Source: a virus (taxonomy: Duplodnaviria; Heunggongvirae; Uroviricota; Caudoviricetes). Taken from it: a stretch of DNA of 9,054 nucleotides. The position numbers and the translations under genes were made by a program. Each line of letters starts with the position of its first letter. Positions within the stretch are counted from its first letter, which is position 1. The stretch spans positions 1 to 9,054 of the IMG/VR virus record IMGVR_UViG_2778261179_000015; one strand, written 5' to 3'. Under the pieces are notes generated by a model. The model saw nothing but the letters and a program-made list of their open reading frames with translations. It did no database searches and was not told the DNA's origin. Below are positions 1-9,054 of the stretch, in pieces.

Positions 1-1239
1 ATGAGCAGCGCAATTCATAGACTTAGCGACACTCTTTTACGAAAATTAAGCGGATCACCAACCACAAAAAACGCCTTTTTTAATGACGGTGGCAATCTTA
101 GCGTAAGACATTCCACCAGCGGCCTGTTAACCTGGTATTTCACTTACAGGGCCGGAACTGGCAGGCAGGTATCACCGGAACGCCTGAGACTGGGCAACTA
201 TCCCGATCTGAGCCTGAAAGCAGCCAGGGAAAAAGCGGCACAGTGTCGCGCCTGGCTGGCGGAGGGGAAAAATCCACGCCATGAGCTTAATCACACAGTG
301 CAGGAAGCGTTAGCCCCCGTGACGGTTAAGGACGCGCTCACTTACTGGCTTGAGTCGTATGCGAAGGAAAAGCGCACTGACCACGAATCACTGAAAAGCC
401 GTATCAATAAGCACATAATCAGCCAGATTGGTGCTATGCCGCTGGATAAATGCGAGCTACGCCACTGGCTGGCCTGTTTTGACCAGCTTGCTAAGCGTAA
501 TCCGGTATCAGCCGGCTTTTTGTTGCAGGTATGCAAACAGGCGCTTAAGTACTGCCGTAAACGTCGCTACGCCGTCAGTAACGTTCTTGATGATATGGTC
601 GTAGGTGATGTGGGAAAAAAAGCAGAAATAAGCGAGCGAGTGCTAACAAACAAGGAGCTTGGCGAGCTACTCCGCGCACTGGATGAAAAAATTTTCCCGC
701 CGTACTACAGCGCTTTAATTCGCCTTCTGATTGTCTTCGGATGCCGTACCACTGAGCTAAGACGCTCCGAGGTTCGGGAATGGGATTTTAAAGAAATGCT
801 CTGGACTGTGCCGAAAGAACACAGCAAAACGAAGGTAGCAATATTCAGGCCAATACCGGAAGCGATCTTGCCGTTCGTCATGAAGCTGGTGGAGCAGAAC
901 AGGCACACGGGCTTATTGCTTGGAGAACTGAAAGGGCAATCATCCGTAGCAGAGTACGGAAGAACGGCACACAGACGCATTAATCAAGCCCCCTGGTCGT
1001 TGCACGACATCCGGCACACATTTACAACCATGCTGAACGATTTAGGCGTGGATCCGCATATTGTCGAACAGCTTACTGCCCACCAGATGCCAGGAATGCA
1101 ACGCGTCTATAACCACTCCCGTTATCTCGATGCAAAGCGTGACGCTCTTAATCTATGGGTAGACCGTCTCGAGCTTCTCCAGAACAATGATGAAAAAATC
1201 GTTGTTATGACCCCGCGAATTTACCCCCAAAATTCTTGA
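1..1239 (+). CDS. int: Tyrosine integrase, P4-type (N-terminal arm-binding domain plus catalytic domain)
   Basis: 412-aa ORF. The N-terminal segment (LTWYFTYRAGTGRQVSPERLRLGNYPDLSLKAAREKAAQCRAWLAEGKNP) matches the pattern of P4-family integrase N-terminal domains. The C-terminus carries the tyrosine-recombinase motifs HDIRHTF and VYNHSRYLD with the catalytic Tyr. The ATG sits at window position 1, so upstream att/tRNA context is not visible. Confidence 0.9.
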   Translation: MSSAIHRLSDTLLRKLSGSPTTKNAFFNDGGNLSVRHSTSGLLTWYFTYRAGTGRQVSPERLRLGNYPDLSLKAAREKAAQCRAWLAEGKNPRHELNHTVQEALAPVTVKDALTYWLESYAKEKRTDHESLKSRINKHIISQIGAMPLDKCELRHWLACFDQLAKRNPVSAGFLLQVCKQALKYCRKRRYAVSNVLDDMVVGDVGKKAEISERVLTNKELGELLRALDEKIFPPYYSALIRLLIVFGCRTTELRRSEVREWDFKEMLWTVPKEHSKTKVAIFRPIPEAILPFVMKLVEQNRHTGLLLGELKGQSSVAEYGRTAHRRINQAPWSLHDIRHTFTTMLNDLGVDPHIVEQLTAHQMPGMQRVYNHSRYLDAKRDALNLWVDRLELLQNNDEKIVVMTPRIYPQNS

Positions 1240-1280
1240 CAAATTACGGCTGTTTTTTCTTTAAGAGATTACAGCCGTGA

Positions 1281-1320
1281 ATAGATCTTAGAATATCGGG
1301 GAATATCTGCAAATATCTTC
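1281..1320. repeat. Tandem 10-bp direct repeats (RAATATC core) in the int-alpA intergenic region; possible regulator binding sites
   Basis: gaatatcggg / gaatatctgc / aaatatcttc at 1291, 1301 and 1311, preceded by a degenerate copy atagatctta at 1281. The 10-bp phasing puts the sites on one helix face. They lie in a 420-bp AT-rich intergenic region. Confidence 0.35.
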
Positions 1321-1660
1321 TCTTTATATGTGTCAACTATCGAAAAAAATTGAAATGTCTTCTTCTGAACTTTTATTCTCTGTTTCTTGATTGTTCCAAC
1401 ACTTGATGGTTTATCTATTTGTTTTTAATGAGATAATTCAAGCGTAATGCCAAGTAACGACATTTTTTGTTGCATCGCTTAAAAACTCGTGACACGATTT
1501 TAAACACTAACGAGCTTCTACGAACCTTAGCGAACAAAGCCTTTAGCAAGGTTGTGTTTTTAATTTAAGAGGTGAAAAAAGAATCTAAGTAATATCCGAT
1601 CTCATATATCTACAGCTAAGAGAAAAGTTTATATACGTAATTTTTTATGTAGGTTTTTGT

Positions 1661-1870
1661 ATGCGTGAAATAAATGAAGATCGCGTAATCCGTGAGGATG
1701 AATGTCGTAAGTTAACTGGAGTGTGTCGCACTACACGCTATGAACTGGAGAAAAAAGGGAATTTCCCGTCACGCCGTAATCTGGGCGGTCGTTCTGTAGG
1801 TTGGCTGCTGTCCGAGGTTATGGAATGGGTTAAAAGCCGGGATCGCATTAATTCAGGCAAGGCAGCGTAA
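1661..1870 (+). CDS. alpA: AlpA-family transcriptional regulator / excisionase-like HTH protein
   Basis: 69-aa ORF. The sequence ECRKLTGVCRTTRYELEKKGNFPSRRNLGGRSVGWLLSEVMEWV fits the AlpA (CP4-57 regulatory protein) HTH pattern, and its position just downstream of a P4-type integrase is typical. A weak SD (agg) lies 7 nt upstream of the ATG. Confidence 0.85.
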   Translation: MREINEDRVIREDECRKLTGVCRTTRYELEKKGNFPSRRNLGGRSVGWLLSEVMEWVKSRDRINSGKAA

Positions 1871-1885
1871 AGGGGGGCATATGAC

Positions 1886-1920
1886 ACATAAAACAAAGGC
1901 GACCCGGATCAGAGGTCGCC
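1886..1920 (-). terminator. Putative intrinsic terminator for the minus-strand RHH gene
   Basis: Perfect 7-bp stem GGCGACC (1898-1904) / GGTCGCC (1914-1920) with a 9-nt loop. On the minus strand it is followed by TTTGTTTTATGTG. It sits in the gap between the convergent alpA and RHH genes. Confidence 0.45.
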
Positions 1921-2011
1921 AGTGGGAATACACTAAACATAAGCCCAGCCATCATAGCGATTTGCTGGCTGGTGGGCAATGTGATCAGTGTGCTGGCTTG
2001 CTGGTTGGCTG

Positions 2012-2185
2012 TCAGCCTTTGGGCTCGATACCGCGCTGTTGTAATTCTTTGCGGAGTATTCGTTTAATCCAAGTAGCTAATGAGGTGTCGCCGTCTGCCT
2101 TGGCTGCTTCCTCAAGTTGCGCTCTAAATTCTTCTGGTAGTCGCATTTGGTATGGTGGCGATCGTTTCTCTAATGGTGTTGACAT
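2012..2185 (-). CDS. Arc/MetJ-type ribbon-helix-helix DNA-binding protein (putative element repressor)
   Basis: Hand-translated minus-strand ORF of 57 aa: MSTPLEKRSPPYQMRLPEEFRAQLEEAAKADGDTSLATWIKRILRKELQQRGIEPKG. It is below the length cutoff of the ORF track. The segment PYQMRLPEEFRAQLEEAAKADG has the beta-strand/helix signature of Arc-family RHH proteins. SD AAGGG lies 8 nt upstream, an in-frame stop lies immediately upstream of the ATG, and the start codon abuts a palindromic operator. Confidence 0.75.
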   Translation of the reverse strand: MSTPLEKRSPPYQMRLPEEFRAQLEEAAKADGDTSLATWIKRILRKELQQRGIEPKG

Positions 2186-2225
2186 GGTAATTACCCTTAA
2201 TTACTATAGTTACATGGTAATTACC
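2182..2225. promoter_or_regulatory. Divergent promoter/operator region: two copies of the palindrome GGTAATTACC in a 14-bp direct repeat, flanking the palindrome ACTATAGT
   Basis: ACATGGTAATTACC occurs at 2182-2195 and 2212-2225, 30 bp centre to centre. Each copy contains the perfect 10-bp palindrome GGTAATTACC. ACTATAGT (2203-2210) is itself palindromic and includes a TATAGT -10-like hexamer. TTACCATT half-site repeats follow at 2221-2240. The region lies between the RHH gene start and the downstream + operon. Confidence 0.55.
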
Positions 2226-2321
2226 ATTGTACTTACCATTACACAAAAAACAACGCCCCGCACTGTAGGAGCAGTAACGGGGCGTCTAACCACCAACGAT
2301 AGCAGAAGTATCGAGGTCGCT

Positions 2322-2525
2322 ATGAGAAATCATACCACACACCCGCAAGGGCGGGATTCGCACAACCTGAATAAATACATCTGGCGTTTTATCGCCCTGA
2401 GCACGGCACAACCGCGCGTGATTACCATTGAGGCCAGCAGCGAACAGGAAGCACGCCAGCAATCCCCGGCTGGCTGCGTGATGGTATTCGCCGCCCGTAT
2501 TCGTCAGGGGGTATGCCATGCCTGA
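2322..2525 (+). CDS. Small protein, possibly Icd-like (host cell division inhibitor family); first gene of the early/replication operon
   Basis: 68-aa ORF taken from the in-frame ATG at 2322 inside the 1881-2525 ORF-track entry. SD GAGG lies 5 nt upstream. Its stop overlaps the next start (ATGCCTGA). The family assignment is a recollection of small proteins annotated Icd-like beside alpA in P4-like prophages and was not verified. Confidence 0.45.
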   Translation: MRNHTTHPQGRDSHNLNKYIWRFIALSTAQPRVITIEASSEQEARQQSPAGCVMVFAARIRQGVCHA

Positions 2526-2838
2526 TATGTCAAATTACCAGTACCTGATTAATCCGCATTTTAACTGTGAGCATGATATTGCTAAAAAGGTTTATTCCGC
2601 TGCGGATGGGGCTACTGACAATATATCAATGGCTGTTGCGTCAATTGGTAGCCTGATGTGGCATGCGTCAGAAAATAAGGACTATGACGAAAAGGCTATG
2701 CGCATTGATATGGGTAATATCGGTTTGTTACTGGCAATGCTTGGGCAGTTTGATATTTCGTTACGGTGCACCATTGAAAATGCCACAGATGCATTAAATG
2801 CCATAAAGAAAGCGAATACTGATTCAAATCGGGGATAA
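2518..2838 (+). CDS. Hypothetical protein (106 aa), function unknown
   Basis: Strong SD AGGGGG 6 nt upstream. Translationally coupled to the upstream gene by an 8-nt overlap. No recognisable motif. Confidence 0.6.
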   Translation: MPDMSNYQYLINPHFNCEHDIAKKVYSAADGATDNISMAVASIGSLMWHASENKDYDEKAMRIDMGNIGLLLAMLGQFDISLRCTIENATDALNAIKKANTDSNRG

Positions 2839-2844
2839 ATAATC

Positions 2845-3144
2845 ATGAGAACATATTTATCTGGCTTGACTGCCAGCGGTTATGCACACCCCAAAATTAT
2901 CCCCGGCGCTATTTATCTGGATAAGAACGGTAACAGAGTAACGGTAAAAGAACTGATGTTTGACCGTGTGTATTTTATTCGTGATGGCTATTCATTTCAT
3001 AGTTCGCTGAACGTGGAGATCTTTATTAGCAGATTCAGGCGGGAAATCCCGCTTTCCAGAAATAACCATGTGTCACGTGTGGATGTGGATAAAAAACTAC
3101 AGGAACTGAAAAACATGATTGCCGCGTGGAGAGAGCAGAAATGA
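2845..3144 (+). CDS. Hypothetical protein (99 aa), function unknown
   Basis: SD GGGGA upstream. Its stop overlaps the replication gene start in an ATGA arrangement. No recognisable motif. Confidence 0.6.
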   Translation: MRTYLSGLTASGYAHPKIIPGAIYLDKNGNRVTVKELMFDRVYFIRDGYSFHSSLNVEIFISRFRREIPLSRNNHVSRVDVDKKLQELKNMIAAWREQK

Positions 3145-5264
3145 AAAAAGCGCCAAATTTAAAACACCAGCCGCGTGACAAAATGACGGAAGTCATCATT
3201 TTTGCGGGTAGTGATGCGTGGGCACATGCGAAACAGTGGCAGGAACAGGACGGGCGACTGGCTGGCGATAACGTGCCACCTGTCTGGCTTGGAGAGCAAC
3301 AACTTGCCGAACTGGACAACCTGCAAATCGTACCGGACGGACGCTATCGCGTGCGTCTCTATCAGGCGGGGTTATTGCGTCCGGGGCTTGTTAATACCAT
3401 CGGGCAGAAACTGGCAGTGGCAGGTGTCAGGGATGCTGATTATTACCCTGAAGGAATGCACAGCCAGAAACGGGAGAACTGGCGCGAATATCTGGAACGT
3501 GAACGGGCAGAGCAGGCGGAAAAGAAAAAGGTAGTTGAACTGCCTGTAAAGAAAAAAGAGCCATGCTATCAGGATGATGAATTAAAGCCCCGCGTTGAAA
3601 GTCGCGTCGATGGTGTTTTCTGGGTAACGCCCAAAGTGGATAAGCAGTCAGGCGAAATTATCCGGCCTGAGACGTGGTTATGTTCTCCGCTTGAACTACT
3701 GGGAACGGGGACGATCGGTAAAGAACATTACCGCGTGATGCGCTGGAAAAAATCAGCAAACCATGAAGTCATCACAATGGCGATCCCGTGTGGTGGCATT
3801 GGCGACCGTGACGGCTGGCGGTTACTTAAAGATCACGGGCTGAACGTGACAACCAACGGCAAATACAGGGCAATCCTGGCGGACTGGATGCAGTTAAGCG
3901 GAAGCCATGAGGAATGGCAGTTAAGCACAACAACGGGCTGGCATTTTGGCGCGTACATCATGCCGGACGGTTCGATCATTGGTGATTCTGAAAAACCGAT
4001 CCTGTTTACCGGAAAAAGCGCCGCGATTAACGGTTATTCCGTGGCGGGTACGGCGGAGGGCTGGCGCGAGAGTGTGGCGCGGCTGGCTGGCGGTAATGCC
4101 TCAATGATGCTGGGTGTGGCAACGTCACTGGCAGCGCCTTTAATTGGCCTTGTGGGTGCTGACGGCTTCGGGGTGCATCTTTTCGAACAGTCATCGGCAG
4201 GTAAGACCACCACGCAGAACATCGCATCAAGTTTATGGGGAGAGCCGGACGCACAACGGCTTACCTGGTACGGAACGGCGTTAGGTATCGCCAACGAGGC
4301 AGAGGCGCACAACGACGGGCTGTTACCCCTGGATGAAATAGGCCAGGCCGGAAACGCGCGGGAGGTGTCCACGTCAGCCTATACGTTGTTTAACGGCTCC
4401 GGGAAATTACAGGGGGCGAAGGACGGCGGCAACCGGGAGATAAAACACTGGCGCACGGTGGCAATCAGCACCGGAGAAATGGACGTTGAGACATTCCTCA
4501 AAACGGAGGGGATAAAAGTCAAAGCGGGGCAGCTTGTCCGCCTGCTTAACGTTCCGATGGAAAAAGCCACGCACTTTCACGAATACAGCACCGGAAAGGC
4601 GCACGCAGACGCGTTAAAGGATGCCTGGACAGAAAATCACGGGGCAGCGGGTCGTGAGTGGGTTAAATGGCTGGCAGGCCACCAGCAGGAGGCAAAGGAT
4701 ACGGTAAGGGAATGCCGCGAACGGTGGCGCAACCTGATACCGGAGAGCTACGGCGAGCAGGTCCACCGCGTGGGTGAGCGTTTCGCCATACTGGAGGCCG
4801 CGCTTGTGCTTTCCGGTCATGTAACTGGCTGGGCCGCGCAGGAATGCCGGGACGCAATACAGCATAACTTTAATGCCTGGGTGAAGGAGTTCGGCACGGG
4901 TAACAGGGAATTTAAACAGATGGTTGAACAGGCTGAGGCGTTTTTGTCGTCGTTCGGGTTCAGTCGATACCTTCCTTACCCAAACAGTGATGAACGTGAT
5001 TTACCGATTAAAGACCTTGCCGGATACAGAAAGGGGAGTATCAGAAATGAAGATGATGAGTTCCGTTTTTACACGTTTCCTCATGTGTTTGAGGGGGAGA
5101 TCGCACAGGGATTTAACCCGTCCCACTTTGCCCGCGCGTTGAGTGCTGCCGGAATGCTGGAAGCGGGTAACGATCGCCGTTACAAGAAAAAGGCTCTCGG
5201 CAAAATTGGGGGGAAGCAGCATGTTTTTTACGTGCTGATGTTCCAGCCTGAGGCAGAAGATTAA
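3141..5264 (+). CDS. Replication initiator, putative primase/helicase-type P-loop NTPase (Pri-Rep-like)
   Basis: About 707 aa from the ATG at 3141, with SD GGAGAG 7 nt upstream. The ORF track begins at a GTG at 3126. Walker A motif EQSSAGKTTTQN and Walker B-like motif GLLPLDEIG are present. Size, position after alpA and before an iteron array match satellite replication proteins. Confidence 0.8.
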   Translation: MKKAPNLKHQPRDKMTEVIIFAGSDAWAHAKQWQEQDGRLAGDNVPPVWLGEQQLAELDNLQIVPDGRYRVRLYQAGLLRPGLVNTIGQKLAVAGVRDADYYPEGMHSQKRENWREYLERERAEQAEKKKVVELPVKKKEPCYQDDELKPRVESRVDGVFWVTPKVDKQSGEIIRPETWLCSPLELLGTGTIGKEHYRVMRWKKSANHEVITMAIPCGGIGDRDGWRLLKDHGLNVTTNGKYRAILADWMQLSGSHEEWQLSTTTGWHFGAYIMPDGSIIGDSEKPILFTGKSAAINGYSVAGTAEGWRESVARLAGGNASMMLGVATSLAAPLIGLVGADGFGVHLFEQSSAGKTTTQNIASSLWGEPDAQRLTWYGTALGIANEAEAHNDGLLPLDEIGQAGNAREVSTSAYTLFNGSGKLQGAKDGGNREIKHWRTVAISTGEMDVETFLKTEGIKVKAGQLVRLLNVPMEKATHFHEYSTGKAHADALKDAWTENHGAAGREWVKWLAGHQQEAKDTVRECRERWRNLIPESYGEQVHRVGERFAILEAALVLSGHVTGWAAQECRDAIQHNFNAWVKEFGTGNREFKQMVEQAEAFLSSFGFSRYLPYPNSDERDLPIKDLAGYRKGSIRNEDDEFRFYTFPHVFEGEIAQGFNPSHFARALSAAGMLEAGNDRRYKKKALGKIGGKQHVFYVLMFQPEAED

Positions 5265-5287
5265 CCCCCTGTGTGAGGTGAAAAGTT

Positions 5288-5602
5288 GCGGGTTATGCGG
5301 GTTACTCTGTGTATAAGTGCATTAACTGCATGAATAAAAAGGAAATCAATAACCCGCACGTAACCCGCAAAACGGCAGTTATAACCCGCAAAAGTGCGAT
5401 TATAACCCGCAGATGAATAACAGGAAGTGACAGCAAACAGCCACGCGTAACCCGCAGAAAAAACCCCGTTTGCGGGTTATTTTGAGCATTTTGCGGGTTA
5501 CGCCACGGCTAAACAGTAAACAGTTAATTTTGTAATGTATTGATATTAAGGAATAAAAAATACTTAGCAAGCGAAGATAACCCGCTAACCCGCATAACCC
5601 GC
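5288..5602. repeat. Replication origin: array of about 12 iterons (R)TAACCCGC / GCGGGTTA(Y) flanking AT-rich segments
   Basis: GCGGGTTA orientation at 5288-5296, 5297-5305, 5472-5480 and 5493-5501. TAACCCGC orientation at 5349-5357, 5361-5368, 5381-5389, 5402-5410, 5447-5455, 5577-5585, 5586-5593 and 5594-5602. AT-rich stretches lie at 5505-5576 and 5607-5626. The array starts immediately downstream of the replication gene stop. Confidence 0.75.
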
Positions 5603-5644
5603 ACTGTTTTGTATATATATATACGAAAAATTGAGATCTGAACT

Positions 5645-5887
5645 ATGAAGGCAAACCGCAAACAACCACACTACCGCGCTATTGACCTTACAGAGCACTG
5701 GCTGAGAGTGGCGATAAAAATCATCGACCGAAACACGGGGGAAGGATATGCAAAAGCACATCCCGAACTGATAAGCGCATTCATGACAACGGCAGCTGCA
5801 AACTTTGCCACGTTGACAGAACGGGAGATTGCCGAAGCGGAACAGGTGACAACCATCAACGTTAAAACCGGAGAGCAGACAGCATGA
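5645..5887 (+). CDS. Hypothetical protein (80 aa), function unknown; co-operonic with ssb
   Basis: ORF directly after the origin. Its stop overlaps the ssb start (ATGA at 5884-5887). No recognisable motif. Confidence 0.5.
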   Translation: MKANRKQPHYRAIDLTEHWLRVAIKIIDRNTGEGYAKAHPELISAFMTTAAANFATLTEREIAEAEQVTTINVKTGEQTA

Positions 5888-6306
5888 CAGCACAGATAGC
5901 GGCTTACGGACGGCTGGTGGCTGACCCGCAGTTAAAGACCACCAGCAAGGGTACACAAATGGCGATGGCTAGTATGGCGGTCCCCCTTCCGTGCAGCCAG
6001 GCAGATGACGGAACGGCGATGATGTGGTTATCCGTCCTGGCGTTTGGCAGACAGGCCGACGCACTGGCAAAACACCACAAAGGCGAACTGGTGAGCGTGG
6101 CGGGTAACATGCAGGTAAGCCAGTGGACAGGCCAGAACGGCGAAACGCGGCAGGGCTGGCAGGTTATCGCAGACAGCGTGATCAGTGCGCGAACAGCGCG
6201 ACCGGGCGGCAAAAAAGGCCAGCAGGGGCAGGCCACTGACGCACTGAACAGGGCAAAACAACAGTCGGGGAATGATGATCCGTACGGCGATAATATACCG
6301 TTTTAA
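5884..6306 (+). CDS. ssb: Single-stranded DNA-binding protein (SSB) homolog
   Basis: 140 aa. The OB-fold core aligns by eye with E. coli SSB (IAAYGRLVADPQLKTTSKGTQMAMASMAV and WLSVLAFGRQADALAKHHKGELVSVAGNMQVSQWTGQNGETRQGWQV). A Gly/Gln-rich linker is followed by the C-terminal tip DDPYGDNIPF, resembling the SSB acidic tail ending DDDIPF. Confidence 0.8.
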   Translation: MTAQIAAYGRLVADPQLKTTSKGTQMAMASMAVPLPCSQADDGTAMMWLSVLAFGRQADALAKHHKGELVSVAGNMQVSQWTGQNGETRQGWQVIADSVISARTARPGGKKGQQGQATDALNRAKQQSGNDDPYGDNIPF

Positions 6307-6323
6307 ATTCTGCAAACAAAAAG

Positions 6324-6352
6324 ATGCCGGAAAAAAATAGATTTTCCGGCAT
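6324..6352. terminator. Stem-loop at the end of the ssb operon (possible terminator; the T-tract is on the minus strand)
   Basis: ATGCCGGAAAA (6324-6334) pairs with TTTTCCGGCAT (6342-6352) around a 7-nt loop. The plus strand has an A-tract before and no U-tract after. The minus strand has CTTTTTGTTTG after the stem. It separates the replication module from the capsid module. Confidence 0.4.
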
Positions 6353-6517
6353 GCTACATAAATCCCGACCAAAGGAAGTAAATACATTAACACGAATTAT
6401 CAGCACTGAAGTTGTCACGGCATATTTTATACAACATTGCACTTGGTTGCATGTATTCGCATAGCAGACATCGGTAATAGAATATATTCACAATTATTTG
6501 TAATGAATGTAAAGAGG

Positions 6518-7564
6518 ATGAGTATGGTTGACTTATATTCGCCTACACAGCTTGTGCAGGTGGCTAATGCTGAAGATGTGCAAAAAAAATTAAATGCGTT
6601 GTTTACCAGTTTGTTTTTCACTCGCTCGGTAATGTTTGAATCGAGAGACATTATTCTTGATACGATCGACGATCCAAATATCCCGATCGCGGCGTTTTGC
6701 TCTCCTATGGTGGGCAGTAAAGTTTCACGAGATGAGGGATACGAATCAAAAACAATTCGTCCAGGTTATATGAAGCCGAAAAGCAGCATTGATCCAAATA
6801 AGTTAGCTGTGCGCCCTGCTGGTGTGTCACCTGAGCAATACAATGCTTTTGGGGCGCGTAATATTAAAGTTAAACAGGCGATTGTAAATCAGGCTAAAGC
6901 TATTCGTGCACGTATTGAATGGCTTGCTGTTCAGGCAATCACAACGGGGAAAAATATCATTGAGGGCGATGGTATTGAACGTTATGAGCTGGACTGGAAT
7001 ATAAAACCACAAAATATCATCACTCAGTCTGGCGGTACTGAGTGGTCAGGTAAGGATAAAGAAACTTTTGATCCAAATGATGATATTGAGAGCTACGCAG
7101 AATTTAGTGAGGGCGTCACTAATATCATCATTATGGGTGGTAATGTATGGAAGAAATACCGTTCATTCAGAGCGATAAAAGAGGCTTTGGATACCCGTCG
7201 TGGTTCTAATTCCGAACTGGAAACGGCCCTTAAAGACCTTGGTGATTCGGTGAGTTTTAAAGGGTATATGGGCGATGTTGCGATTGTTGTTTACAGCGGG
7301 CGTTATACCGACGAGGACGGAACAGAAAAACATTTCCTTGATCCTGATTTGATGGTGCTTGGCAATACGGCTCTTCAGGGGATTGTCGCCTATGGCGGTA
7401 TTCAGGATCCGGAGCTAATCCGAATGGGGCTGACTAAAGCCGAACTTGCACCGAAAAACTATATTGTGCCTGGTGATCCGGCTATTGAATATGTGCAGAC
7501 ACATTCAGCACCACAGCCAATACCGGCCCGCATCAATCGTTTTGTTACCGTTCGCATTGGCTAA
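6518..7564 (+). CDS. Major capsid protein, phage lambda gpE-like (HK97-fold family)
   Basis: About 348 aa from MSMVDLYSPTQLVQ, which parallels the lambda gpE N-terminus MSMYTT. SD AAGAGG is immediately upstream. Extended similarity to recalled lambda gpE includes ITQSGGTEWS, KEALDTRRGSNSELETALKDLG and GDVAIVVYSG. The ORF track starts earlier at 6437, probably upstream of the true start. Confidence 0.85.
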   Translation: MSMVDLYSPTQLVQVANAEDVQKKLNALFTSLFFTRSVMFESRDIILDTIDDPNIPIAAFCSPMVGSKVSRDEGYESKTIRPGYMKPKSSIDPNKLAVRPAGVSPEQYNAFGARNIKVKQAIVNQAKAIRARIEWLAVQAITTGKNIIEGDGIERYELDWNIKPQNIITQSGGTEWSGKDKETFDPNDDIESYAEFSEGVTNIIIMGGNVWKKYRSFRAIKEALDTRRGSNSELETALKDLGDSVSFKGYMGDVAIVVYSGRYTDEDGTEKHFLDPDLMVLGNTALQGIVAYGGIQDPELIRMGLTKAELAPKNYIVPGDPAIEYVQTHSAPQPIPARINRFVTVRIG

Positions 7565-7573
7565 GGGGGAGCA

Positions 7574-7915
7574 ATGGCTACTCATTACACTGAACTCATG
7601 GCTGGCACTGAAGCACTGGTGACTACGCTGGGGATATTTTCAGCTAATAAAGGGGTAATTCCTGCATTTACGCCACTGATGCAGGAAGATGCAACAGGTG
7701 CACTGGTGGTATGGGATGGTTCGAGCGTAGGTAAAGCGGTTTATGTTTCCGCTGTACAAATCGACACAGCGAAAAAAACACAGGCACAGGTTTATAAGAC
7801 AGGTGTTTTAAATGTTGATGCTCTGAACTGGCCTGAGTCTGTAAAAGAACTGTCGGCAAAGGTTGCCGCGTTTGTTGGCTCAGGTATTTCTGTTCAGCCG
7901 CTGGCTCGTGTGTAA
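7574..7915 (+). CDS. Head decoration protein, phage lambda gpD-like
   Basis: 113 aa. The segment TPLMQEDATGALVVWDGSSVGKAVYVSAVQIDTAKKTQAQVYKTGVLNVDALNWPE parallels recalled lambda gpD (TPLMLDTSSRKLVAWDG...FYKSG...LWPE). SD AGGGGGA upstream; lies 10 nt after the capsid gene stop. Confidence 0.8.
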   Translation: MATHYTELMAGTEALVTTLGIFSANKGVIPAFTPLMQEDATGALVVWDGSSVGKAVYVSAVQIDTAKKTQAQVYKTGVLNVDALNWPESVKELSAKVAAFVGSGISVQPLARV

Positions 7916-7926
7916 AGGGGGATACA

Positions 7927-8310
7927 ATGCAGAATCATTACAATGACCTTAAGCCAATTGCCGAAATGATGTATCCGGATCCAGCAGTAGAGGAATTAAA
8001 GGCTATTGCTGACAAAATGCGTTTAAGTGAACGCCTTGTTGATATGAATCAGGTGATGGAACTTACTACCCTTAGCCGTCGCACATTGCTAAACCTTGAG
8101 GCTCGCGGAGAGTTCCCCGAACGCGTACAGGTTACGGAAGGGCGTAAGGCCTGGTATTTAAGTGAAGTGATCGACTGGATAAACAATATTCCTCGATCTT
8201 CTGAATATTGCCGCGTACCTGTCCCAAAAAAGCCAGATGCGGCGCTATGCCTCAAGATTGAGCGTGTACGTCGCAATGCACGGGATGGTCGCTATAAGTT
8301 GATTGGTTGA
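7927..8310 (+). CDS. AlpA-type HTH domain protein (127 aa) with N- and C-terminal extensions; putative regulator or DNA-specificity factor
   Basis: The central segment MNQVMELTTLSRRTLLNLEARGEFPERVQVTEGRKAWYLSEVIDWINN matches the AlpA/excisionase-type HTH pattern and resembles the alpA product at 1661-1870. SD GGGGG 5 nt upstream. The gene ends about 25 bp before the cos core. Confidence 0.7.
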   Translation: MQNHYNDLKPIAEMMYPDPAVEELKAIADKMRLSERLVDMNQVMELTTLSRRTLLNLEARGEFPERVQVTEGRKAWYLSEVIDWINNIPRSSEYCRVPVPKKPDAALCLKIERVRRNARDGRYKLIG

Positions 8311-8335
8311 TGAAATTAGGGCCCGTTCTGGCTGG

Positions 8336-8400
8336 CGGGTCCTTTCCGGCGATCCGGTAGGCTACGGGGCGGCGACCTCGCGGGTTTTCGCTATTTATGA
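8336..8400. other. Lambda-type cohesive end site (cosQ-cosN), with the 12-nt cohesive-end sequence GGGCGGCGACCT at 8367-8378
   Basis: Window 8336-8366 (CGGGTCCTTTCCGGCGATCCGGTAGGCTACG) matches the recalled right end of the lambda genome (CGGGTCCTTTCCGGTGATCCGACAGGTTACG) with 4 mismatches. Window 8367-8400 (GGGCGGCGACCTCGCGGGTTTTCGCTATTTATGA) matches the first 34 nt of the lambda genome exactly. Similarity is lost downstream of 8400, in the presumptive cosB (8401-8500). Confidence 0.85.
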
Positions 8401-8511
8401 GCCTTTTTCGGGTGCTGGTGGTGGTTTTGTTGTTCGCTCTATCTCTATGAATAAAAAGGAAAAGATAAAGCCAATACACCAACCTGAAACATTACTTAAG
8501 TGGGGATATTG

Positions 8512-9054
8512 ATGAAATCGCACCTGATGAACAAAAAAAACATGGCGCAAAGCTGCCGTGTAAGTGCGACAGCGTTCGACAAGTGGGGAGTGACTCCCGT
8601 TGAACGTAAAGGCCGCGAGGCGTTTTATGATGTTGCCAGCGTAATAGACAATCGGGTTAGCAATGCAATTAACCAGATTACAGACGACAAAGGCGAGATT
8701 GATAATGATGAGCTTTTGCGAGTCAGGATCAGATTGCTGACAGCGCAGGCGGAGGCGCAGGAGCTTAAAAACGAGCGCGAACGCGGCGATGTGATTAGTA
8801 CGGAATTTTGTATATATGCGCTTTCAAAACTGGCGAGTCAGATTTCTTCAATCATGGGCAGCCTGCCGCTTACTATGCAAAGGAGCTTCCCACAGATGAC
8901 CCCCGCCATGCTGGATGGCCTGAAAAAAGAAGTTGTCAGAGCCTGTAACGCATGCACAAAACTTGATGAAAACATCCCGCGAATGCTGTCCGATTATCTG
9001 ATGGAAACTACCGGAAATGTGCCTGATAAGTTTCAGCCGGATAAAGACAAGTAA
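8512..9054 (+). CDS. terS: Terminase small subunit, phage lambda Nu1-like
   Basis: About 180 aa from the ATG at 8512, with SD GGGGA upstream. Alternative starts exist at 8527 and 8542, and the ORF track begins at a GTG at 8500. The C-terminal two thirds (RLLTAQAEAQELKNERERGDVISTEFCIYALSKLASQISSIMGSLPLTMQRSFP...LDENIPRMLSDYLMETTG) parallels recalled lambda Nu1 (RLTRAQADAQELKNARDSAEVVETAFCTFVLSRIAGEIASILDGLPLSVQRRFP...LDELIPGLLSEYIEQSG). The N-terminal DNA-binding region is more diverged. The gene lies immediately downstream of cos, as in lambda. Confidence 0.85.
   Translation: MKSHLMNKKNMAQSCRVSATAFDKWGVTPVERKGREAFYDVASVIDNRVSNAINQITDDKGEIDNDELLRVRIRLLTAQAEAQELKNERERGDVISTEFCIYALSKLASQISSIMGSLPLTMQRSFPQMTPAMLDGLKKEVVRACNACTKLDENIPRMLSDYLMETTGNVPDKFQPDKDK

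Follow-up and report, generated by a model that had tools for sequence, protein, structure and literature searches.

A lambda-type cos site joined to a non-phage cosB region and a Nu1-family small terminase gene in an EcCICFT073-family satellite

We analyzed the cohesive-end site (cos) and the adjoining small terminase gene (terS) at the 3' end of a 9,054-bp stretch of viral DNA (IMG/VR record IMGVR_UViG_2778261179_000015, positions 1 to 9,054; "the window" below is this whole stretch). The element that carries them is a satellite of the phage-inducible chromosomal island (PICI) type, belonging to the EcCICFT073 family and roughly 10.5 kb long; it is not a prophage. From left to right, and all on the + strand, the locus consists of a cosQ-equivalent heptamer (8337..8343), a cosN (8365..8380), a stretch of 22 nt to the right of the cohesive end that is identical to lambda bp 13-34 (8379..8400), an island-specific cosB region of 111 bp that fills the space between this lambda-identical block and the terS start codon (8401..8511), and terS itself (8512..9054), which encodes a full-length small terminase subunit (TerS) of the Nu1/gp1 family with 180 aa, the presumed reader of the adjoining cosB. 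We number positions from the first nucleotide of the cohesive end (+1 = 8367; -1 = 8366), so that the cosB region extends over +35..+145. The lambda reference was NC_001416, with its right end joined to its left end, and the window was compared with it in register.

The left part of the site is nearly that of lambda. A preliminary description of this DNA had proposed a junction of lambda ends of about 65 bp, including the exact 12-nt cohesive end and 22 further nucleotides of the lambda left end, and the comparison bears this out. Across 8337-8400, 60 of the 64 positions are identical to the joined lambda ends; by segment, the identity is 27/31 over -31..-1 and 34/34 over +1..+34, and the latter segment is equally identical (34/34) to cos1 of EcCICFT073. 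The cohesive-end 12-mer GGGCGGCGACCT (8367-8378) is exactly the lambda left end and has a single copy in the window. A 64-nt lambda-derived pattern, with N at the 4 mismatch positions, matched only at 8337-8400, with 0.00 matches expected from 200 dinucleotide-preserving shuffles. When the 221 nt at 8300-8520 were searched by blastn against 50,697 phage records, the aligned part was limited to 8335-8412 (35% of the query), with ~90% identity to 92 lambdoid phages; the best of these, such as PhiR29_1, are lambda-like and carry the lambda Nu1/gpA pair together with the lambda cosB.

The heptamer GGGTCCT, which we take to be cosQ in lambda, lies at -30..-24 from the top-strand nick and is identical to the lambda right end, at the same spacing. 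The surrounding block CGGGTCCTT is unchanged in every sister-island cos aligned (sister islands being loci fetched via TerS homologues), and PICIs in general share with their helpers both cosQ and its spacing (PMC9026076). The cosN, defined as the 12-nt cohesive end with 2 bp on each side (PMC9026076, section 1.3), is also an exact lambda match. By homology to lambda, nicks are predicted between 8366/8367 on the top strand and 8378/8379 on the bottom strand, positions that had been correctly derived from the lambda register. As far as sequence can tell, the window is thereby confirmed to carry a genuine lambda-type cos site. No promoter or terminator was found at 8300-8520. We also observed a 9-nt direct repeat (CTGGCGGGT / CTCGCGGGT) at 8332-8340 and 8377-8385, 45 nt apart, which links the cosQ region with the right edge of cosN; its CGGGT core occurs at both places in lambda too.

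Beyond +34 the similarity to lambda had been described as stopping abruptly where cosB would lie. Instead, it decays gradually: 8 of 12 positions are identical over +35..+46 (GCCTTTTTCGGG in the window, AAATTTTCCGGT in lambda), and the identity is 56% over +35..+70 and 39% over +71..+145. Thus, of the alignment foreseen in the preliminary description, the near-identity over ~65 bp stood, and the absence of any similarity beyond it did not. The lambda R3 core is not kept, with 8/16 matches over bp 50-65 and 3/9 over bp 55-63, the base pairs contacted by lambda TerS (counts tallied from the in-register alignment). The R3-I1-R2-R1 repeat set of lambda cosB is not present in the window, nor did we find the integration host factor (IHF) consensus WATCAANNNNTTR in 8400-8512 when up to one mismatch was allowed. 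Local alignment did identify an A/T-rich conserved block (8445..8465, + strand) that resembles the R2 region of lambda (101-121; score 13, shuffles 8.3 +/- 1.3, p ~0.006). It includes the only degenerate R-like 12-mer of the window, AAAAAGGAAAAG (8453-8464), whose reverse complement CTTTTCCTTTTT agrees with the R consensus CGTTTCCTTTCT at 10 of 12 positions, on the minus strand. Since the TTTCC core of this R2-like element is not retained in sister lineages, it is probably a vestige or a bend element.

Remnants of this kind would be most relevant if the unmodified helper terminase used cosQ and cosN together with the residual cosB homology, the island TerS mainly interfering with helper packaging or being dispensable. 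The in-register similarity up to +70, and the fact that the R2-like element keeps the critical T56, C58 and C59, are in line with such a use, and so is the finding that EcCICFT073 cos clones without phage cosB and without Rpp still support a reduced plasmid transfer by lambda and phi80 (PMC6092414, PMC6739421). We nevertheless consider this explanation quite improbable: the R3 core is lost, most clearly over the TerS-contacted base pairs, the core of the R2-like element has disappeared from the sister islands while the island's own motif and its spacing are strongly conserved, and deletion of cosB in lambda leads to poor and inaccurate nicking (PMC9026076).

The same part of cosB contains one copy of an exact 16-mer, ATGAATAAAAAGGAAA, that occurs twice in the window (0.00 expected), at 8447-8462 and at 5330-5345, the latter at the edge of an iteron-rich putative origin. 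The origin copy is found only in the replicon lineage of the window and of its 98%-identical relative, E. coli E6474 (locus L001). The 16-mer may be a host-factor or bend site common to both places, or a scar left by recombination.

The cosB region 8401..8511 is kept among islands that share the same TerS N-terminal module, and its conservation and fixed spacing point to GGTGGTGGTTTTGTTGTTCG (8417..8436, + strand; +51..+70) as a candidate R3-equivalent TerS-binding site. This sequence is invariant in 15 protein-anchored loci whose TerS is at least 82% identical to that of the window, and related forms, GGTGGGCGTGTTGTTGTT and GGTGGTGGTGTTGTTATC, occur in relatives with 71% and 50% TerS identity, despite different cosN sequences. 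In a set of 59 independent IMG/VR contigs, which were found with the cosB motif itself, the motif GGTGGTGGTTTTGTTGTT starts at +51 in 58 loci, and the cohesive end is lambda-identical in 51. This position overlaps R3 of both lambda (bp 50-65) and N15 (bp 48-60) (PMC9026076), and the fixed start fits the strict requirement for cosN-R3 spacing known from lambda (PMC9026076). For PICIs, Murialdo and Feiss (2022) placed a proposed R3-equivalent at bp 48-65, within which the segment 55-63 is conserved (PMC9026076). The window does not have this conserved ACCACCACC, its bp 55-63 being GTGGTTTTG; it has GGTGGTGG at +51..+58 on the top strand, whereas PICI-A has ACCACCACC at 55-63 in the complementary orientation. 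We also noted that the (GGT)n tract of cosB (+44..+56) varies in length: locus L007 is 6 nt shorter than the otherwise identical L008, with 139 bp from cosN to the ATG instead of 145 bp, a form that is rare, given the +51 start in nearly all IMG/VR loci.

Further downstream, a conserved distal block, CCAATACACCAACCTGAAA (8471..8489, + strand), is an imperfect inverted copy of 8406-8424 (TTTCGGGTGCTGGTGGTGG), although this assignment is tentative. Its ACACCAACCTGAA is invariant among close sister islands, and the inverted-repeat score lies above shuffles in L016 (17 vs 8.5 +/- 1.5) and L020 (15 vs 7.7 +/- 1.5). In the window the score is within the shuffle range (10 vs 8.0 +/- 1.5), and a repeat search there found no inverted R3/R2-like arms, so that we rejected such arms for the window itself.

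The product of terS is homologous to phage small terminases over its full length, including the N-terminal winged helix-turn-helix (HTH). It matched Pfam Phage_Nu1 with 77.5 bits (cut-off 30) and phrog_57 over residues 1-173 (E = 2.8e-50). By BLASTP, it is 46% identical to N15 gp1 (E = 3e-53) and 35% identical to lambda Nu1 (E = 2e-33), the latter alignment reaching the C-terminal LDE-IP--L--Y motif, which is common to lambda and N15 and not found in 21-type TerS. In the DNA-binding module (aa 1-50) the identity rises to 59% with N15 gp1 and 43% with lambda Nu1. The island TerS has the short wing of N15, with the same wing indels; unlike in lambda Nu1, the wing is shorter and ~20 residues of the linker helix are missing. 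An AlphaFold2 model predicts that the N-terminal winged HTH superposes on the DNA-binding domain of lambda TerS. The start is consistent with annotation, as PGAP places it at the same ATG (8512) in identical relatives. The C-terminal half of the protein is found only in satellites. There is no cognate large terminase (TerL) gene beside terS or elsewhere in the island, and between terS and attR the 98%-identical relative has only an open reading frame (ORF) of 94 aa; TerL must come from a helper.

The closest precedent is EcCICFT073, the only characterised relative, which has lambda/phi80-like cosQ and cosN and no phage cosB, as described by the Penades laboratory (Fillol-Salom 2018, ISME J, PMC6092414; 2019, Mol Cell, PMC6739421). 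Its cos1 is experimentally functional for lambda, phi80 and CFT073 phage 4, and its Rpp protein binds the helper TerS, the resulting heterodimer reading the cosB of the island and not that of the phage (PMC6092414, PMC6739421). Rpps have 135-154 aa and lack a TerL-binding tail, so the helper TerS must supply TerL (PMC9026076, Murialdo and Feiss 2022). The window shares with EcCICFT073 the cohesive end, the cosQ spacing and a non-phage cosB that lies, next to a helper-like cosQ/cosN, directly upstream of the specificity gene. It also shares the gene order (genes for a major capsid protein (MCP)-like and a head-decoration-like protein, a small ORF, cos, the specificity gene and an ORF of 93-94 aa). 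In the CFT073 locus (L004), these are the MCP-like and decoration-like genes, a 137-aa ORF, cos1 (2559), RppA (2660-3094) and a 93-aa ORF, followed by phoQ, and the 3' half of the window is syntenic with L004 669-3655. The two differ in the specificity gene, which in the window encodes a 180-aa Nu1/gp1 homologue and not an Rpp of 135-154 aa (winged HTH plus dimerisation helices, with no TerL-binding tail), and in the length of cosB (111 bp in the window vs 67 bp). The cosQ-side flank of the window is nearer to that of lambda (87%) than to that of EcCICFT073 cos1 (65%).

This precedent provides the main rival explanation, namely that the island TerS forms mixed dimers or oligomers with the helper TerS, as RppA and RppC do, and that the hybrid reads the island cosB and no longer the phage cosB, with the helper TerS supplying or sharing the contact with TerL. 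On present sequence comparisons this appears unlikely. The terS product showed no BLASTP alignment to RppA even at E <= 100, which rules it out as an Rpp, and a PDB sequence search gave no match to the solved RppC or TerS(1-98) chains. Moreover, the island protein is full length with a Nu1-like C-terminus, unlike Rpp, and chimeras of the type described next, in which a DNA-binding domain identical to that of a helper is joined to the satellite C-terminal half, would gain nothing from heterodimerisation of the DNA-binding domains.

Sister islands at phoQ, clpS, rpoD-side and other sites share the layout of the window, and their TerS proteins consist of two re-assorting modules. The N-module is either N15-type or lambda/21-type, and the C-tail is of type A (LDENIP...) or type B (ADNLP...). 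All four combinations exist, with counts of 36, 35, 5 and 2 among the 120 homologues listed, and the junction of the N-module with the satellite-only C-tail is marked by an invariant AQELKN motif. In the chimeric protein P0101, aa 1-100 are 97% identical to the TerS of CFT073 helper phage 4 and the remainder only 35%, while its C-terminal half is 96% identical to that of the window TerS; P0120, P0054 and others are further examples. The cosB type tracks the N-module. In every N15-type island, cosB contains GGTGGTGGTTTTGTTGTT or a near relative of it, together with TATGAATAAA and ATACACCAACC, and the GGTGG...GTTGTT cosB is kept with the N15-type N-module even in L015 and L013, whose cohesive ends are different. 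A 21-type N-module is accompanied by a 21-type R-repeat cosB, and the cosB of the Rpp island has ACCACCACC. In the sister islands, cosB is exchanged along with the DNA-binding module, the two forming a single cassette.

The remainder of the window is organized as a PICI. All of its genes are on the + strand, in the order tyrosine integrase (1-1239), small HTH protein, DUF4222 protein, DUF927 primase-type replication protein (3126-5264), single-stranded DNA-binding protein (SSB), lambda gpE-like major capsid protein (Phage_cap_E; 6437-7564), gpD-like decoration protein (HDPD; 7574-7915) and AlpA-like regulator (7927-8310), followed by cos and terS. According to SatelliteFinder, PICIs are elements of ~9.5 kb that have an integrase, an AlpA-type regulator, a primase-replicase, a capsid-like gene and a small terminase in a conserved order and are devoid of further structural genes and of lysis genes; they are delimited from the integrase start to the terS stop (PMC10085698). 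The island agrees with this definition, the two ends of the 9,054-bp window coinciding with the int start and the terS stop, and its cos lies between the capsid-like genes and the specificity gene, as in the PICI layout. In the 98%-identical relative, the element is located between yljB/cspD and clpS, with imperfect direct repeats (att) as its boundaries at a distance of 10,477 bp; genes for a TerL, a portal, a protease or tail proteins are absent from it. This supports the earlier assignment of the window to a satellite.

With a cut-off of 80% identity, 770 of 5,426 complete E. coli genomes have the cosB+terS module, O157:H7 and Nissle 1917 records among them; this frequency indicates maintenance. 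The module appears essentially confined to E. coli/Shigella, with the exception of one Scandinavium relative; a search of GTDB species representatives with a single TerS protein gave no match. Because gpE-like, gpD-like and Nu1-like genes are present without TerL, portal or tail genes, one could also regard the locus as a relic without function, namely the cos-Nu1 end that remains of a lambdoid prophage after its decay. We think this very unlikely, given the complete PICI layout in its usual order, the intact ORFs, the att repeats, the recurrence of the island at several chromosomal sites (clpS, phoQ and rpoD-side contexts), the number of genomes with the module, and the perfect retention of cosQ/cosN while the flanks diverge. 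A relic, like packaging by the helper terminase alone, fits the conservation data poorly.

Overall, we estimate a probability of about 60% that 8337-8511 is a functional cos of an EcCICFT073-family PICI, at which a helper TerL would nick cosN under the direction of the island TerS bound to the island cosB. Upon induction by a lambda-like helper, the island would excise, circularise and replicate into concatemers, and a helper gpA-type TerL would introduce the staggered nicks at the lambda-identical cosN. The specificity for island DNA would come from the island cosB, with GGTGGTGGTTTTGTTGTTCG as the core candidate and possibly a second, inverted arm at 8471-8489. The winged-HTH domain of the N15 gp1-type TerS that the island itself encodes would read this cosB, and the conserved satellite-only C-terminal half of the protein would recruit the helper TerL. 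Packaging would then proceed rightward through cosB and terS and around the circularised genome of ~10.5 kb, ending at the next usable cosQ-cosN. As packaged EcCICFT073 DNA is phage-sized (PMC6092414), we would expect ~4 units (~42 kb) to fill a lambda head.

This interpretation is based on the lambda-identical cosQ/cosN, the PICI layout, the family and domain layout of TerS, and a cosB motif that is conserved in sequence and fixed in spacing, all of which are observed. It also relies on the resemblance to the layout of EcCICFT073, with its functional cos1, and on the end-to-end alignment of TerS with Nu1/gp1, which includes the C-terminal region that Rpp lacks (PMC9026076). From these we infer cleavage at the window cos, binding of TerS to cosB, and a TerS-TerL contact made without the helper TerS; gene content and the co-variation of the cassette make it reasonable that the island TerS reads its own cosB. 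The signature of packaging piracy that had been recognised here is correct at its core: the window combines a helper-type cosQ/cosN with a cosB that lacks the lambda repeat set and with a small-terminase homologue immediately downstream.

Several observations weigh against this interpretation. EcCICFT073 cannot dispense with the helper TerS (PMC6092414). The satellite C-terminal half shares only ~35-40% identity with the TerS of any phage, so direct binding of a lambda-type TerL is not assured. The co-inheritance of cosB and the TerS N-module, which lie side by side, could be due to nothing more than linkage. Among the 59 IMG/VR contigs with the motif, none starts or ends at the predicted nick. 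Finally, the cosB could not be equated with that of N15, the phage whose TerS is closest. Both have a G/T tract of 3-nt periodicity at the R3 position (GAGGTTGTTGTTT at N15 48-60, GCTGGTGGTGGTT in the window), but identity to N15 R3 over bp 48-60 is 8/13 in register, and only the low-complexity 8-mer TTGTTGTT is shared, at an offset of +9 (local alignment p = 0.36 by shuffling).

Among phages, lambda resembles the window in cosQ, cosN, cohesive end and bp 13-34, which are identical or near-identical, and in having terS directly downstream of cos, with Nu1 homology end to end. It differs in the R3 core, the three-fold R repeat and the IHF consensus, which the window lacks, in the distance from cosN to the ATG (190 bp, vs 145 bp in the window) and in the gpA gene, which does not follow the island terS. 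N15, whose gp1 is the best phage relative of the island TerS, also has a short cosB, which according to the Feiss laboratory's work, as summarised in PMC9026076, is a single R3 read by gp1. In contrast to N15, the window has the lambda cohesive end and not GGGCGGCGTCCG, extra conserved distal cosB blocks, and the satellite-specific TerS C-terminal half. Staphylococcus aureus pathogenicity islands (SaPIs) offer partial parallels, as summarised in PMC6092414 and PMC6739421. SaPI TerS proteins (e.g., that of SaPIbov1) are satellite small terminases that work with a helper TerL and redirect packaging to a satellite site, although by headful (pac) packaging and with a different TerS family; SaPIbov5 carries a helper cos and no TerS of its own, whereas the window combines a Nu1-family TerS with a helper cosN and a private cosB.

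A broader reading, to which we would give somewhat less than even odds, is that an exchangeable cassette of cosB and the TerS DNA-binding domain is joined at AQELKN to a satellite-only module that captures the helper TerL, allowing packaging without the helper TerS. The private pairs of cosB and DNA-binding domain (N15-type, 21-type and lambda-like) would then derive from other phages and be orthogonal to the current helper, the inverted cos copies found in sister islands would promote inversion and exchange of the cassette, and the mechanism would be distinct from that of Rpp. The literature searched holds no experimental account of such a mechanism for cos phages.

The cos site itself is an expected feature of a known class, and a helper cosQ/cosN with a different cosB has already been published and tested for the EcCICFT073 family (PMC6092414, PMC6739421, PMC9026076); the phenomenon is not new. 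It was noted in 2018 that "some" Gram-negative PICIs have terS homologues (PMC6092414), and PICI terS genes are listed generically as core components (PMC10085698). The literature searched, the coverage of which was incomplete, yielded no experimental account of a Nu1-type TerS encoded by a cos-type PICI of E. coli. Nor did it yield any mention of a helper-type cosN together with a private cosB and, in place of Rpp, a complete satellite TerS of the Nu1/N15 type, arranged as a modular cassette; this combination appears to be new. If true, EcCICFT073-family islands solve the problem of being packaged by a lambda terminase while excluding the helper genome in two interchangeable ways: with an adaptor that hijacks the helper TerS (Rpp), or with a complete satellite small terminase and its own cosB. 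The terS-type module being common, this bears on the spread of the virulence and defence cargo of the islands. Which parts of TerS govern the choice of cosB and which the choice of TerL is a classic question of the lambda/21 comparison, and for the Nu1 family the natural chimeras represent a ready-made panel to address it.

Some additional features of the window and its relatives were observed. The island has gpE-like and gpD-like genes without a portal, protease or scaffold gene; for their homologues in EcCICFT073, c1499 and c1500, the 2018 study detected no phenotype (PMC6092414). Immediately past the DUF927 gene, at 5340-5600, TAACCCGCA iterons are densely packed in either orientation, together with an A/T-rich stretch; this is probably the replication origin of the island.

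In many sister islands, and in EcCICFT073 (L004), another cosN lies in inverted orientation ~190 nt beyond terS or rpp, on the minus strand at 5729 in L007, 5776 in L012, 3734 in L016 and L024, and 3309 in L004, where it is cos2; the cassette is thus bracketed by inverted cos copies. The window lineage (the window and L001) has no cos2. In L011 (5001-5585) the terS cassette points the other way with respect to the capsid genes, and a cos2-type cosQ flank accompanies its cos, which suggests that the cassette was inverted by recombination between cos1 and cos2.

Cohesive-end variants (GGGCGTCGACCT, GGGCGGAGACCT, GGGCGACGACCT and GGGCGTCAGCGT) were found in L009 (4813), L020 (2856), L015 and IMG/VR loci, and presumably track different helper terminases. 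Outside E. coli/Shigella, Scandinavium manionii (L013/L014, 2994-6517) has a related satellite with an N15-type TerS of 50% identity. Its cosN differs and its cosB motif is retained as GGTGGTGGTGTTGTT. This satellite sits inside the Phage_cap_E gene of a prophage, the helper-embedded PICI configuration described by Tommasini et al. (PMC10111431).

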